Source: Candidatus Omnitrophota bacterium
GTDB taxonomy: Bacteria > Omnitrophota > Gorgyraeia > Zapsychrales > JBAZNR01
Assembly: GCA_041649175.1 (NCBI GenBank)
Contig: JBAZNR010000001.1
Coordinates: 911,497 to 975,496, forward strand
Direction: 5' to 3'
DNA length: 64,000 bases
In this document: piece by piece, positions 46,003 to 52,439 of the stretch
Numbering within the stretch: position 1 is the first letter of the stretch
Layout of the letters: each line of letters starts with the position of its first letter
Position numbers and translations under genes: made by a program
The notes under the pieces: model-generated
Told to the model about the DNA's origin: nothing
What the model saw: the letters and a program-made list of their open reading frames with translations, nothing else
Databases searched by the model: none

Positions 46003-46578
46003 ATGAAAAAGATTTTTCTAGGCGTCGGTATTCTGGCAGCGGTTATGTTGGTTGCGCAAATTTCTTTTGCTCAAGAGGCGGCTGTTATGGATAGCCAAGT
46101 TATAGAGCCGGCGGATGTTACTGTCGTGCCTTCCTCGGAAGAGATCCGCAGTACTGTTACGAATTACATCAATGAGCAATCCAGCGAAACCGGAACATTT
46201 GATGTCTATGATCCGGATGCGGAAGATATTCGAGAGTTGACGCTTGAGAAGGTTCAGGAAAATACCGGAAAAAGTGGAGAGTATTATTATGTTTGCGCCA
46301 GCTTTAAAGATATGAATAGCAACGATAGTGTTGATCTGGACCTGGACGTTGAAAATGTGGGTGGAAAATTAAATGTTATCGATGTGCGCATCCATAAAGT
46401 TAATGATAAAGAGCGCTATAGCTATGATGCGAGCGGAAATCGCATACTGATCCTCGACCCTCTTAAAGTTCCGGAACCGGAAATAGTTAATGCCCCGGTA
46501 GAGGAAAATGTTGTTGAAGATGCTCAGCCCATGGAGGATGCTCCTTCGGCTGAACAAGCGGCCCCCGTTAATCCGTAA
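46003..46578 (+). CDS. Secreted acidic hypothetical protein.
   Basis: Start at MKKIFLG with a strong RBS and a signal peptide (…AQISFA-QE). Acidic, no recognisable domain. Confidence 0.45.
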   Translation: MKKIFLGVGILAAVMLVAQISFAQEAAVMDSQVIEPADVTVVPSSEEIRSTVTNYINEQSSETGTFDVYDPDAEDIRELTLEKVQENTGKSGEYYYVCASFKDMNSNDSVDLDLDVENVGGKLNVIDVRIHKVNDKERYSYDASGNRILILDPLKVPEPEIVNAPVEENVVEDAQPMEDAPSAEQAAPVNP

Positions 46579-46608
46579 AGCTTAGATTTTATAAATAAAA
46601 GAGATGTT

Positions 46609-46656
46609 AAGCAGGCCCGCTTCGCCATTGTTCATGGCGAAGCGGGCCTGCTTTTT
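46609..46656 (+). terminator. Strong intrinsic terminator.
   Basis: Perfect 18-bp stem AAGCAGGCCCGCTTCGCC...GGCGAAGCGGGCCTGCTT followed by TTTTT, 30 nt after the stop codon. Confidence 0.75.
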
Positions 46657-46737
46657 AAAATCAAATATTGATTTTTGTTTATTCGTATCTTTTTATTTTT
46701 ATGTTATACTAAATTCCAATTAGCAACCCTTGTATTT

Positions 46738-47385
46738 ATGAAAAAAACTAAGATCTCAAAAATCACAGCGACGATTATTGTTATGATTGCCTGCGTTATT
46801 TCTGTGCATGCAGCCAAATTTATTTTGAAGTCTTTGCGTTCCCATCTGCCCAATTATTCCATTTTAGCCCGCGCAAAAGGTAATCCTAAAGCGCCTATTA
46901 AGATCATTGAGTATCTTGATTTCCAATGTCCCGCTTGCGCTAAAGGCGCCATCGCTTTAAAAGAATATCTCAAGAAATATCCGTCACAGATCTATTTAGA
47001 AGTAAAGCATTATCCTATCAGCCAGATCCACAAGTATGCGCTCAAAAGTGCTTCGTATGCCGAATGTAGCGCTAAACAAGGAAAATTTTGGGAGTTTCAC
47101 GATTTTCTGGTCAAGGAGCAATCGCGTTGGGAACGTTTACTGAATGTTGACGCGATCTTTCGCGAAAAGGCTCATGCTCTAGGGCTTGATCTAAAGAAAT
47201 TGGATGCCTGTGTTGAGAGCGAGGAAACAAAGGCCGGGATCCTCAAAGAAAAAGAGCAGGGAAAAGCCTTAGGGATCAAATCAACCCCGACATATTTTAT
47301 TAATGGAAAAATGGTCGTGGGGATGATCTCTCTCAAGCAAGCCCTTGATCGCCATTTTGCCGAACAAAAAACAGGAAAGCCATAA
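46738..47385 (+). CDS. DsbA-family thioredoxin-fold thiol:disulfide oxidoreductase.
   Basis: CPAC active site inside a thioredoxin fold with an N-terminal signal/anchor. Start chosen at MKKTKIS, because the track start would include the upstream promoter-like AT-rich region. Confidence 0.6.
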   Translation: MKKTKISKITATIIVMIACVISVHAAKFILKSLRSHLPNYSILARAKGNPKAPIKIIEYLDFQCPACAKGAIALKEYLKKYPSQIYLEVKHYPISQIHKYALKSASYAECSAKQGKFWEFHDFLVKEQSRWERLLNVDAIFREKAHALGLDLKKLDACVESEETKAGILKEKEQGKALGIKSTPTYFINGKMVVGMISLKQALDRHFAEQKTGKP

Positions 47386-47832
47386 TTGATGTTAGCGCTA
47401 GCAAGAATTTTTATTGGATGCGTTTTGATCGTTTCGGGATTTGAGAAGCTCATAAGCCCGATCGAAAACTTTCTTTATGTCGTTCAAAGTTATGAGATCG
47501 GTAATCCTATTTTTAATGATGTGGCCTCTCAAGCTGTTCCCTGGATAGAACTTTTTACCGGCGTTTTTCTTGTCCTGGGGCTTTGGATCCATTTTTCATT
47601 ACGCTTAGCGTGGTTTTTATTTCTCGGATTTATCCTGATGGTCATGCAAGCGATTTGGCGCGGCTTACCCTTAGATGAATGCGGATGTTTTGGCAGTATC
47701 GTTTCAATTTCTCCTGCTTTAATCATCGTTTTAGATACGACAACATTAGTTGTTTTAACTCTCCTGAAGATTTCTCCGGAAAAAACTTCTCAATTTGGCC
47801 TAGATCGGTATTTTCAAAAGAAAACAAAATAA
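47386..47832 (+). CDS. DoxX/MauE-family membrane protein (commonly partners DsbA-like proteins).
   Basis: Four TM helices with the IFIGCVLIVSGFEKL pattern. Immediately follows the DsbA-like gene. Confidence 0.5.
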   Translation: MMLALARIFIGCVLIVSGFEKLISPIENFLYVVQSYEIGNPIFNDVASQAVPWIELFTGVFLVLGLWIHFSLRLAWFLFLGFILMVMQAIWRGLPLDECGCFGSIVSISPALIIVLDTTTLVVLTLLKISPEKTSQFGLDRYFQKKTK

Positions 47833-49478: not shown

Positions 49479-49889
49479 ATGATGCCACCATCAGTAAAAA
49501 GATCTCTTTTGCACGTTAATCGATTCCAAAGCCCGTTACTTAATTTGATCATTGCTTTTTCTTTGACAACAGTTATCGTGCTGACGATTTGCGTTTCTTA
49601 TCTTTCTTATGACGTGACGAATTCTATCCTTAATCCGGCTCGTGAAATTCCGACGGTTAAGATCGTTATTATCCTCATTCTTCTTGTTCTTCCGCTTATT
49701 TTCTTTCTTAATATTATTTGGGCCTATCGTGCCTCCAGCCGCCTTTTAGGCGCTTTCGAGCGTATTTTACGGGAATTGGACAATATCCTTGAAACGAAGC
49801 AGAAGAGGCACATTCAAGCCAGGGAAAACGACCGTCTTGCCAATGAGCTTTTAGAGAGAGTTAATAAGCTTATTGATCGAATGGCTTAA
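49479..49889 (+). CDS. Small membrane protein with C-terminal coiled coil, hypothetical.
   Basis: Two TM helices, then a charged helical tail. Confidence 0.35.
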   Translation: MMPPSVKRSLLHVNRFQSPLLNLIIAFSLTTVIVLTICVSYLSYDVTNSILNPAREIPTVKIVIILILLVLPLIFFLNIIWAYRASSRLLGAFERILRELDNILETKQKRHIQARENDRLANELLERVNKLIDRMA

Positions 49890-49917
49890 GCCTTCCAAAA
49901 AGAAAATAATCAAGATA

Positions 49918-50265
49918 ATGATCTTCCAAAGAATTATTTTATGTGTTTTTATTTCAACCTTTTTTTTATTGCCGATGGCCTTTGCTCATCCGCCTTCCGG
50001 TGTTGAACTTAGCTATGATAGCGCTAACGGAGCTTTAACGGTCCAGGCAGAACACGTTTCTAAAAATCCCCGCAAGCATTATGTCCGAAGGATCGCTGTC
50101 AGCAAGAATCAGGAAGATCCTGTTGGGTTTTCGTTTTCGTCTCAAAATTCCGCGTCTCGAGTTTTTGAACAAATTCCTTTTCAGGCTAACCGAGATGATG
50201 TTATTCACGCAAAATTGATCTGTAGCGAAGCCGGCCAAAGCGAAGCGACGATCACCATTCCTTAG
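49918..50265 (+). CDS. Small secreted hypothetical protein.
   Basis: Start at MIFQR gives a signal peptide ending AFA-HPP. Its His-rich beta-type sequence has no clear family. Confidence 0.35.
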
Positions 50266-50288
50266 CGCATCGCTTTTATCATATTGAA

Positions 50289-52439
50289 TTGATGTCCAAT
50301 CCTAATCGTCTTATCAAAGAAAAAAGTCCGTATCTTCTTCAGCACGCCGCCAATCCGGTTGATTGGTATGCGTGGTCGCTTGAGGCTTTCGAAAAAGCAA
50401 AAAAAGAAAACAAGCCGGTTTTTTTATCGATCGGTTATTCCACCTGTCATTGGTGTCATGTGATGGAGCGGGAATCTTTCGAGGACGATCACATCGCCGA
50501 CATTCTCAACGAACATTTTGTTTGTATCAAAGTTGACCGGGAAGAGCGCCCGGATATTGACCATATCTACATGTCATTTGTTACGGCTATGACCGGGTCA
50601 GGCGGCTGGCCTTTGTCTGTTTTTCTGACACCGGATAAAAAACCTTTTTTTGGCGGAACATATTTTCCACCCGAAGCTAAGTGGGGCAGCCCGTCTTTTG
50701 AACAAGTTTTATTATCTGTGAGCGGCAATTGGCGCAGCCAGCCGGAAAAAATTCTGCAATCCAGCGAGGAAATGATGCAAGCCTTATTGTTGCGCGAAGA
50801 AGCGCGGGACAATAACGCATCGTCCATAGATGAAAAAATATTTTCCGTGGCTTATCGGCAGTTGAGCGCGATGTTTGACCCTGTTTTTGGAGGTTTTGGG
50901 CAATCTCCTAAATTTCCGATGGGGCATAACCTGTCTTTTTTACTGCGCTTTTGGAAGAAAACAAAACAGCCGGAAATCTTGAAGATCGTTGAGAAAACTC
51001 TTAAAGAAATAAGCAAAGGCGGCATTTGCGATCATTTAGGCGGAGGCTTTCATCGCTATTCAACGGACCGTCAGTGGCAAGTTCCGCATTTTGAAAAGAT
51101 GCTTTATGACCAGGCTATTTTAGCAAAGGCTTATCTGGAAACCTATCAGGCGACAAAAAATTCAGATTATGCGATTGTTGCCCGTGAAATTTTTGATTAT
51201 GTATTACGGGATATGCAGTATTCTCAAGGAGGATTTTTCTGCGCGGAAGATGCGGATAGTGTCGCGCCGGAGCAGGCTTCTCTTCTGCAACAAGGCGATC
51301 GTCATCCCGAGAAAAAAGAAGGAGCCTATTATCTGTGGGGCTTTAACGAAATCGAAGATGCTCTGGGGGTCCGGGATAGTGAGATCTTTTATTATCATTA
51401 TAATTTTCGCCTGGAAGGCAATGCCGACCATGATCCTCACGGCGAATTTATAGGAAAGAATATTCTTTATGTTGCAAAAACAGTTGAAGCGACCGCACAA
51501 CATTTTAAAAAATCGATGGAAGAAATAGAGGAAGTTTTAAAGCGTTCCAAGGAAAAACTTCTTTTTTTGCGCACAAAAAGGCCGCGTCCGCATTTAGACG
51601 ATAAGATCTTAACGGATTGGAATGGGCTGATGATCTCGGCTTTATCGTTTGGGGCTATAGTTTTAAATGAACCCAAATATCAAAAAGGCGCCGAAGACGC
51701 GGCGCAATTTATCTTGAGCCGGTTAGTCAGAGAAGACGGAACTCTGTGGCATCGTTTCCGAGATGGTGAAGCGGCCATTGCCGGCCATCTGACGGACTAT
51801 GCTTTTTTTATTAACGGCCTTCTGGATCTTTATGAGACAACGTTTAAAACGGCCTATTTAAAAGAAGCCGTTAAATTCGCAGAAACAATGATGTGCCTTT
51901 TTTGGGATGAGAAAAACGGAGGGTTCTTTTTAAGCGCGGCTGACGCAAAAGATATTATTCTTCGCTCTAAAGAAGTTTATGACGGCGCTTTGCCTTCGGG
52001 AAATTCAGTGGCGGCTTTAGTGTTTGTTCGGTTGGCGCGTTTTTTTCCGGACAGTCATTGGGAAAAAAACGCGCAACAGGTCTTTTCTGCTTTTTCTGAT
52101 GAAATATCGCATCAACCAGCCGGATATGCCCAGATGCTTACCGCATTAGATTTTGCTCTTGGCCCTTCTTGTGAAATTGTGGTCGTTGCCGAAAATCGCT
52201 CAGAGCAAACAAGGCAGATCTTGAGGGAAGTTTATGCGTGCTTTATCCCTAATAAGATCATTATTCTTCGAGTTCTCAATGAAAAAGAAGAGCAGGAATT
52301 AATAGAGCTTGTACCATTTATTAAAGAGCAGGGCTTAGTCAGCGGCCAGCCGACCATTTATGTTTGTCGTAACCATGCGTGTCAACGGCCGGTAACGAGC
52401 CCGGAAAGTTTGAAAGCACTTCTTGACGTAGAAATTTAA
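50289..52439 (+). CDS. Thioredoxin-domain protein of the YyaL/DUF255 (SSP411) family, with a C-terminal (alpha/alpha)6-barrel.
   Basis: N-terminus [53 protein letters not shown] is the DUF255 signature. Confidence 0.8.

Follow-up and report, generated by a model that had tools for sequence, protein, structure and literature searches.

A predicted Sec-exported Memo::AMMECR1 fusion encoded beside a DsbA-like/MauE thiol-redox pair in a branch of the Omnitrophota

A 64,000-nt stretch of DNA from Candidatus Omnitrophota (GCA_041649175.1, JBAZNR010000001.1), hereafter the window, within which all coordinates are counted unless a locus is named, encodes a 495-residue protein (47849-49336, + strand) in which two components of the AmmeMemoRadiSam system, Memo (protein B) and AMMECR1 (protein A), are fused behind a hydrophobic N-terminal extension. 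Upstream of the fusion lie the genes of a DsbA-like thioredoxin-fold protein (46738-47385) and of a four-transmembrane protein of the MauE/DoxX family (47386-47832), and the third component of the system, the radical S-adenosylmethionine (SAM) protein amrS, is not encoded in the window. We lean, with some reserve, towards the view that the fusion is a Sec-exported two-domain enzyme that is served by a dedicated thiol-disulfide relay composed of the DsbA-like and MauE proteins. The pair and the fusion belong to a run of seven + strand open reading frames (ORFs) at 46003-52439, all of which are present in the ORF list as an earlier note on this DNA described them.

The membership of the protein in both families is solid, since profile scores, fold matches and conserved residues agree. 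Residues 26-292 (47924-48724) score 270.8 bits with the hidden Markov model (HMM) TIGR04336 (cutoff 26) and span positions 2-270 of its 270, and residues 320-489 (48806-49315) match TIGR04335 with 179.3 bits against a cutoff of 99; both scores lie far above their cutoffs and bear out the description of the protein as a fusion of Memo and AMMECR1. The corresponding Pfam models give 209.9 bits for PF01875 (Memo, residues 27-289) and 186 bits for PF01871 (AMMECR1, residues 323-489), and the NCBI name for an identical protein is “AmmeMemoRadiSam system protein B”. The metal-site residues H68, H100, D205, H208 and C246 are intact and are invariant among 142 fusions; their counterparts in human MEMO1 we take to be H49, H81, D189, H192 and C244. 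In an alignment with 7KQ8 and 3BCZ, these residues fall on the MEMO1 motifs PHAGY, PSH, SxDxxH and CG. The AMMECR1 domain carries an invariant LRGCIG (L364-G369), with C367 conserved in 100% of the 142 fusions, as well as C463, which lies within a C.KAGL motif and is conserved in 91%. The metal-site and cysteine residues are invariant or nearly so in this diverse set, whether the fusions are exported or not. Position 238, eight residues from the metal ligand C246, is a cysteine in 78% of the window's clade versus 2% of the wider family, a residue that the clade has gained.

The fold matches point the same way. An AlphaFold2 (AF2) model of the fusion, computed from a 72-sequence alignment, has a mean predicted local distance difference test (pLDDT) score of 93.7 and a predicted template modelling (pTM) score of 0.62, and shows residues 2-19 as a separate helix ahead of the core and a disordered inter-domain linker at residues 299-307. 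Searched with Foldseek, the N-terminal half retrieves MEMO1 (3BCZ and 7KQ8; E of about 3e-20, target-normalised template modelling (TM) score 0.81-0.82), followed in rank by class III extradiol dioxygenases, as for a Memo/LigB-type fold. The C-terminal half matches the archaeal AMMECR1 structures 1VAJ, 1ZQ7 and 1WSC with target-normalised TM scores of 0.64-0.78, the highest of which belongs to 1VAJ, and the same three entries (1ZQ7, 1VAJ, 1WSC) are the sequence relatives of this domain in the PDB.

The hydrophobic N-terminal extension, MRKYFFAVIILASSLNPLLALE, ends 4-5 residues short of the point at which the Memo HMM match begins (residue 26-27). It is laid out as an n-region MRK, an h-region YFFAVIILASSL and a c-region NPLLA|LE with likely cleavage after A20, and the combination of a basic n-region, a hydrophobic h-region and a small-x-small c-region that is conserved in orthologs corresponds to the pattern for Sec export with cleavage by signal peptidase I (SPase I). 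The predicted signal peptide spans residues 1 to ~21 (47849-47911), and the leader is thus predicted from this layout and from its conservation in homologs to direct Sec export and to be cleaved. Among the 120 best homologs of the fusion (51-58% identical, 472-547 residues, all of them fusions), 93 have a comparable leader, the small-x-small end of which stands directly before an invariant IK.PNVSGQFY. In four close homologs, a lipobox replaces the Sec-type cleavage site, and the occurrence of such lipobox variants among orthologs argues for true export.

That the hydrophobic N-terminus is instead an artefact of a wrongly chosen start codon, or anchors an enzyme that stays cytoplasmic, is highly improbable. 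There are in-frame TTG, TTG and GTG codons at positions 18, 21 and 24, and the leader is missing from the public gene calls of the remaining 27 of the 120 homologs, which might suggest a shorter protein. None of the internal codons has a Shine-Dalgarno sequence, however, whereas a canonical AGGAGG, read directly at 47838-47843, stands 5 nt before TTG 47849, the first start codon past the upstream stop; the next methionine of the protein, M48, is already inside the Memo core, and a start at an internal methionine that would remove the leader, raised in the earlier note as a way in which its claim might fail, is therefore disfavoured. The short gene calls begin inside the conserved c-region, for example with MPSFAFGD, and in one of them (P0058, locus L010) an in-frame upstream ATG, overlapping the MauE stop as ATGA, restores the full leader MIQTLFFLLKSTVFLLMMGGFVMMSSFASGD. 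Judged from its sequence, the short form of P0058 is a gene-calling error, and the other 26 short calls are probably errors too. The basic n-region ahead of the h-region implies an N-in, C-out topology, and in many relatives a lipobox is followed by a Pro/Thr-rich tether. Taken together, the Shine-Dalgarno position, the leaders of the homologs and the upstream ATG of P0058 led us to reject the start-codon artefact as the source of the leader. Public calls that start at an internal methionine in the c-region include P0007, P0010, P0014, P0019, P0025 and P0058, among others of the 27; since such calls hide the leader, automated localisation surveys would under-count the exported members of this family.

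Export is not a peculiarity of the window. An exhaustive search of 1.84 billion cluster representatives gave 19,575 relatives at an E cutoff of 0.001, of which 3,195 remained at 1e-30; the best 150 of those relatives (representatives of 50%-identity clusters) are all fusions, and at least 118 of them have a hydrophobic N-terminal extension, with a lipobox in 44 of those 118. About 9 of the 11 “unclassifiable” representatives also have a leader, judged by eye, and 15 of the 150 begin directly at the Memo core. An Anaerolineae-seeded search collected 119 fusions of the Chloroflexota type, of which 111 have a hydrophobic N-terminus and 94 a lipobox (L-[VA]-A-C, then a Pro/Thr-rich tether). A metagenome scan with the family alignment added 80 fusion loci, classed as 62 exported, 10 cytoplasmic and 8 unclear (62 of 72 classifiable ones exported), the N-termini in this ORF survey being taken from the first start codon after a stop, so that some may be too long and the leader class of a few is approximate. 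By these N-terminal features, the exported form is the majority among these fusions, and many of its members would be lipoproteins. The notion that a secreted version is atypical does not survive these counts, which suggest that the exported forms act on a substrate accessible from the periplasm or from the outward-facing side of the membrane.

The two genes upstream of the fusion encode a plausible thiol-redox pair. The first protein matches Pfam Thioredoxin_4 (93 bits) and DSBA (56 bits) and carries at its N-terminus a membrane anchor or signal, MKKTKISKITATIIVMIACVISVHA, together with a CPAC active site and a second conserved cysteine pair; a D(F/Y)xCPxC motif is invariant in an alignment of six clade orthologs. 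Its ORF as listed starts at TTG 46675, but its homologs start at an MK(I/L)(S/T)K position, and its probable start is therefore ATG 46738. NCBIfam equivalog models for DsbA itself score far below cutoff on the 46738-47385 protein, for which reason it is referred to here as DsbA-like and not as DsbA. The second protein matches Pfam MauE with 62.3 bits (cutoff 27) and DoxX with 31.3 bits (cutoff 23.6), carries an (E/D)CGC(F/Y)G motif that is invariant in six orthologs, and is presumed to be the membrane partner of the first. The spacing between the two genes is 0-3 nt (junction TAA TTG ATG), and a gap of 16 nt separates the MauE gene from the fusion; in L007, L008 and L010, the MauE stop and the fusion start overlap by 4 bp.

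The order DsbA-like, MauE, fusion is found in the window and in L004, L007, L008, L009, L010, L016 and L019, and L002 keeps the DsbA-like gene upstream of the fusion. When the comparison is limited to loci with at least 1.5 kb on each side of the fusion, 8 of 11 loci of the window's clade have the pair within 1 kb, as against none of 36 loci of other exported fusions (Fisher p = 5e-7). The association of the fusion with DsbA-like and DoxX-type neighbours, which had been noticed in this one stretch, is thus genuine. The genes upstream of the triad vary between genomes and include phosphoenolpyruvate carboxykinase (PEPCK), ribonucleotide reductase and Gly-zipper genes.

In the same set of loci, the linkage of amrS runs the other way: it is absent from all 11 clade loci and present in 23 of the 36 others, in 19 of them within 1 kb (Fisher p = 2e-4). 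Searches with amrS HMMs and with tblastn, for which the genuine amrS proteins of Segatella hominis, Ideonella dechloratans and L015 described below served as probes, returned no match anywhere in the 64 kb of the window, nor in loci L001-L010, L016 or L019, amrS was not found within 10 kb of the fusion in any clade relative, and positive controls scored 305-625 bits. The earlier statement that no radical SAM gene adjoins the fusion therefore applies equally to the ten other clade loci with adequate flanks. The conclusion once attached to it, that export hints at action outside the radical-SAM context, fares differently, since 23 of 36 other exported-fusion loci carry amrS and export hence does not imply independence of a radical SAM partner. 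In Segatella hominis (L011), a fusion with the hydrophobic N-terminus MRKIVLVVLLTMCMMMEAK is followed by amrS (TIGR04337, 305 bits), the genes of a lipoprotein fusion and a 429-residue amrS (377 bits) share 4 bp in locus L015 of the Chloroflexota, and in the sister locus L017 amrS overlaps the fusion gene. L096, from a metagenome-assembled genome that is labelled Omnitrophota and lies outside the clade, has a lipoprotein fusion beside a genuine amrS (385 bits), and amrS (625 bits) comes after a leaderless fusion in Ideonella dechloratans. A leaderless amrS stands beside an exported fusion in L011, L026, L033, L034, L040, L047, L081 and L089. A rough neighbour-joining tree places every DsbA-like/MauE-linked fusion in one clade, the nearest outgroups of which include amrS-adjacent lineages (L017, then L026, L033, L034, L040 and L047). 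On the strength of this tree and of the amrS in L096, the arrangement in the window looks derived, with the linkage to amrS lost and the thiol-redox pair gained.

The only CxxxCxxC radical SAM protein encoded in the window, of 261 residues (17854-18639), was considered as the missing partner and rejected, as it has no TIGR04337 match and weak MoaA/viperin-like scores. This protein and its relative in L009 (L009:5270-6049) are 259-261 residues long and carry CNFDCIYC near residue 34. The L009 gene directly follows hypD-hypE, the one in the window follows hypD-hypE and a CoA-transferase/acetyltransferase gene, and the protein may be a hydrogenase-linked maturase.

The other members of the cluster are less uniform. 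A secreted protein (46003-46578, + strand, as are all genes of this paragraph), with an AAGGAGG Shine-Dalgarno sequence before its ATG, opens the cluster and has no family match. Downstream of the fusion come small1 (49479-49889), a two-transmembrane protein with a C-terminal helical region and no Pfam family, and small2 (49873-50265), a small secreted protein with a signal peptide and a probable true start at ATG 49918; these three small proteins have no Pfam match at E up to 10 and no sequence match in the PDB. An ortholog of small1 is found only in L004, and a DCC1-like thiol oxidoreductase occupies its position in L007 (L007:12190-12585), L008 (L008:12136-13389), L010 (L010:11512-12009) and L016 (L016:4871-6181); in L008 this oxidoreductase is joined to a vitamin K carboxylase-like HTTM domain, and the ORF of L016, of similar length, is probably an HTTM fusion as well. 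A second DoxX lies downstream of the fusion in L007, a CcdA-type gene lies several kb upstream of it in the Ca. Aceula genomes, and a DsbD/CcdA-like membrane protein, whose sole NCBIfam match is a weak one to an ArsG-family model, follows it directly in L017. The His/Cys pattern of small2, FAHPPS..YD..G.L...HV..N..H..R.I..KN...ICSE.G, is conserved downstream of the fusion in five clade loci (window 49873-50265, L004:12146-12529, L007:13296-13691, L010:11972-12370, L016:7557-7961), and small2 may be a metal-binding partner; its single-sequence AF2 model has a pLDDT of 52. Viewed by eye, the pattern recalls superoxide-reductase-like metal sites.

YyaL/DUF255 (50289-52439; Thioredox_DsbH 266 bits), a thioredoxin-like domain joined to an alpha/alpha-barrel, closes the cluster. 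A reading of its N-terminus revealed no signal peptide; without a leader the protein is probably cytoplasmic, and the cluster is consequently not uniformly periplasmic. It follows the fusion in three clade loci only (window, L010 and L016), so that of the “periplasmic thiol-redox cluster” seen in the earlier note, the core of DsbA-like protein, MauE and fusion stands, recurring in 8 of 11 loci, and the inclusion of YyaL does not. By position alone, the gene that most regularly follows the fusion in the clade is that of an AsmA-family envelope protein (54226-56106; Pfam AsmA 91 bits), which is found 33 nt to 6.4 kb downstream in all ten clade loci with downstream sequence. From AsmA onwards, the gene order of the block 54226-63704 (AsmA, (NUDIX), PDDEXK/Cas4-like nuclease, PilZ, YqeY, polysaccharide deacetylase and a family-less protein of ~1095 residues) is kept in L003, L005 and L010 despite ~50-58% identity. 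Directly upstream of the cluster, 40767-45848 encodes a 1693-residue secreted protein with a signal peptide, a Peptidase_C25 (gingipain-like) domain, a CARDB domain and multiple PKD/Ig/cadherin-like repeats. Across the window (1-64000), the + strand holds 47 of 48 substantial ORFs, and the GC skew is positive in each 2-kb segment (cumulative +2.79), which fits a single long leading-strand stretch.

If the fusion and the pair do work together, the fusion would be exported by Sec and freed into the periplasm, or lipid-anchored in some relatives, where its Memo metal site and the cysteine cleft of its AMMECR1 domain would act on a periplasm-facing substrate. The DsbA-like and MauE proteins would form a dedicated membrane-to-periplasm relay, analogous to DsbA/DsbB or MauD/MauE, that lets electrons pass between the cysteines of the exported enzyme and the membrane (probably its quinone pool), with C246, the clade-specific C238, C367 and C463 as the candidate client residues. 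Such a relay could set or recycle the redox state of these cysteines for metal binding or catalysis, and the radical SAM partner would be unlinked in this Omnitrophota branch, with the thiol-redox pair in its place. That the fusion is the client of the pair, in which direction the electrons would flow and what kind of substrate they would serve are matters that we infer from gene order, predicted localisation and analogy.

Several observations weigh against a dedicated relay. Cytoplasmic fusions conserve the three invariant cysteines to the same degree, so that these cannot be regarded as an adaptation to the periplasm. The Ca. Aceula genomes keep the fusion and are missing the pair, in L007, L008 and L010 the pair follows PEPCK, and the DsbA-like and MauE proteins could be the general oxidative-folding system of the clade that merely happens to be encoded upstream. 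Scans of 45700-54300 for promoters and terminators gave counts near those of shuffled sequence, with no site in the intergenic gaps. The pTM of only 0.62 makes the arrangement of the two domains in the model uncertain, and we know of no established biochemical function for Memo, AMMECR1 or amrS in any organism.

In a plainer account, the gene order is inherited without functional coupling, the pair is a housekeeping disulfide-forming system, the fusion works alone, and the envelope genes around it (those of AsmA, YyaL and the small proteins) have nothing to do with it. It would explain the Ca. Aceula loci with a fusion and no pair, the long synteny shared within the clade (AsmA, PDDEXK, PilZ, YqeY, polysaccharide deacetylase and the ~1095-residue protein), and the sporadic occurrence of a leaderless YyaL. 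It sits poorly with the 4-bp overlap of the MauE and fusion genes in several genomes, with the retention of the triad while the genes upstream of the pair change, and with the recurrence of unrelated thiol-redox genes (DCC1, HTTM-DCC1, a second DoxX and CcdA-like genes) by the fusion across lineages, and we hold it to be doubtful. Another account, quite possible in our view without being probable, is that amrS is encoded elsewhere in the genome and that the fusion belongs to an ordinary three-part system whose genes have become unlinked; amrS may then act on the pre-protein before Sec export or on a cytoplasmic stage of the substrate, or may itself be exported. The sequence inspected from this genome is 64 kb of a 1.23-Mb contig, eight loci pair an exported fusion with a leaderless, presumably cytoplasmic amrS, and amrS accompanies the fusion both in the Omnitrophota-labelled L096, outside the clade, where it scores 385 bits beside a lipoprotein fusion, and in the sister locus L017, where the two genes overlap. 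The contrast in linkage (0/11 versus 23/36, p = 2e-4) speaks against it, as the loss would have to be clade-wide at ~50-58% identity, and so does the different redox module in the position next to the fusion. With these accounts weighed, the exported enzyme served by its neighbouring thiol-disulfide relay remains the explanation to which we lean.

A broader proposal, which we consider unlikely on present evidence, and more so than either of the accounts just weighed, is that the Memo-AMMECR1(-radical SAM) system is an envelope-directed machine in many bacteria, that in Chloroflexota and other lineages even the radical SAM protein leaves the cytoplasm by the Tat route, and that, in the window's clade, a quinone-linked DsbA-like/MauE relay has functionally replaced the radical SAM protein. 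If true, the Memo-AMMECR1 core would perform redox chemistry on a periplasm-facing substrate, driven without SAM radical chemistry. As a matter of speculation, one candidate substrate is a membrane isoprenoid, which would be a fitting target for an enzyme that is exported or lipid-anchored and has redox partners of the quinone type; a 2019 comparative study by Burroughs and colleagues is said to have linked Memo contexts to the modification of nucleotide bases and aliphatic isoprenoids.

In other lineages, amrS itself carries export signals. The N-terminus of the L015 amrS (L015:8632-9921), MRKITRRDLLKLGGLGLCTLGGGAVLANPG, is a canonical twin-arginine (Tat) signal, and [ST]RRxFLK occurs near the N-terminus of 107 of the 120 best homologs of this protein (P0392-P0511; 400-440 residues versus the 349 positions of the model), which form a large Chloroflexota group. 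A CxxCH motif, the signature of heme c attachment, is present in 119 of these 120 homologs, always 25-27 residues ahead of the N-terminal cysteine cluster C.LCP..C, and judging by this signature the conserved insert may bind heme c. The cytochrome c biogenesis genes ResB and CcsA lie directly upstream in L015 (L015:6701-8601), L021 (L021:1126-3401) and L072 (L072:15-1968), and the L021 amrS has no CxxCH. In the metagenome survey, a Tat-type leader was found on amrS beside at least 12 exported fusions, the amrS leaders of L070, L071 and L088 having been reclassified as Tat by eye; wherever the neighbouring fusion of a Tat-type amrS could be classified, it was an exported Memo::AMMECR1 fusion. 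No leaderless fusion next to a Tat-type amrS was seen in that survey, in which few leaderless-fusion loci have amrS. Besides L015, the loci with Tat-type amrS are L021, L024, L025, L029, L030, L035, L037-L039, L041, L046, L049, L070-L073, L086, L088 and L095. A few amrS proteins (as encoded at L017:2631-3728 and L048:8367-9455, the latter on the - strand) have Sec-like hydrophobic leaders, such as MKKLILGILILFLLLGLAVFSSLQSA, which are hard to reconcile with the insertion of an Fe-S cluster in the cytoplasm before export. In L096 (GCA_016930485.1, L096:6514-11500), the gene order is a cytoplasmic stand-alone AMMECR1, a NosR/NapH/MauN-like membrane protein with FMN_bind and Fer4 domains, the leaderless amrS, a 56-residue ORF and the lipoprotein fusion; the 56-residue ORF, possibly a remnant, reads through a Tat leader into EARYY, with which the amrS core starts, and then stops. 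It would be highly unusual for a radical SAM enzyme to be targeted to Tat, and this would raise the question of how SAM and low-potential electrons are supplied outside the cytoplasm; a literature search found no description of exported radical SAM enzymes.

Archaea and humans alike have conserved forms of AMMECR1 and Memo; the two proteins have links to human disease, and to our knowledge neither has an established biochemical function. The region deleted in Alport syndrome with intellectual disability includes AMMECR1, whereas the link of MEMO1 is to cell motility driven by ErbB2. The gene families are already known and the gene has been named by homology; what appears to be new is that exported forms dominate among the fusions, that one clade has a DsbA-like/MauE pair in place of the linkage to amrS, and that amrS carries export signals elsewhere. 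Literature searches on AmmeMemoRadiSam, on exported AMMECR1 and on DsbA in Omnitrophota found nothing relevant, although the 2019 comparative study may mention secreted versions. One published list gives AMMECR1 top priority among archaeal proteins that are still uncharacterised (PMC6393860), and a conserved S-layer gene neighbourhood of Pyrobaculum and Thermoproteus holds an AMMECR1-domain gene together with a thioredoxin-like-fold gene (bioRxiv 10.64898/2026.08.21.746120), a faint parallel to the pairing of AMMECR1 with a thioredoxin fold near the cell surface that is seen here. Three results constrain the role of the system, namely the exported majority, the putative thiol relay in the position of amrS and the amrS proteins with Tat leaders. 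They also supply natural variants for comparison, in which amrS is present or absent and in which a thiol relay, a NosR/NapH-like electron-transfer protein or cytochrome c biogenesis genes stand in the neighbourhood. The predicted exported fusion of this Omnitrophota bacterium with its cysteine-redox partners offers a new handle on the role of an enigmatic system.

Compared with the AmmeMemoRadiSam system as it is otherwise known, the window has components A and B with their conserved residues complete, but the two are fused and carry a Sec signal, there is no amrS in the 64 kb, and a DsbA-like/MauE pair is adjacent. The Memo domain shares its fold and the same five metal-site residues with human MEMO1 (3BCZ; 7KQ8, iron-bound; 7L5C, copper-bound) at ~22% identity; MEMO1 is a cytosolic, single-domain, eukaryotic protein, whereas the domain in the window is fused and predicted to be exported. 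The archaeal AMMECR1 homologs PH0010 (1VAJ), MM0484 (1ZQ7) and ST0229 (1WSC) are 36-39% identical to the C-terminal domain and share its LRGCIG and C.KAGL motifs; unlike it, they are stand-alone and cytoplasmic. The same fused architecture is seen in the exported lipoprotein fusions of the Chloroflexota and other metagenome lineages, which are 37-42% identical to the fusion in the window. They differ in having a lipobox and a Pro/Thr tether, an adjacent amrS (23/36 loci) and no DsbA-like/MauE pair. A twin-arginine leader is frequent on their amrS, which in the Chloroflexota group also has the CxxCH insert, sometimes with ResB/CcsA upstream.

Two further systems serve as analogies. Anaerobic sulfatase-maturating enzymes are cytoplasmic radical SAM enzymes that modify a cysteine or serine of a protein that is later exported, and by this precedent export alone would not exclude a radical SAM partner for the fusion; the families are unrelated, so that the likeness is one of analogy only, and we know of no such modification of Memo or AMMECR1. 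DsbA/DsbB and the MauD/MauE proteins of the methylamine dehydrogenase cluster each combine a CxxC protein of thioredoxin fold, located in the periplasm, with a partner that is a small polytopic membrane protein. The thioredoxin-fold protein in the window differs from MauD in matching Thioredoxin_4 and DSBA and no specific MauD model, and the proposed client is not a quinoprotein, but its membrane partner matches Pfam MauE and the pair is, like MauD/MauE, encoded beside a presumed periplasmic client.

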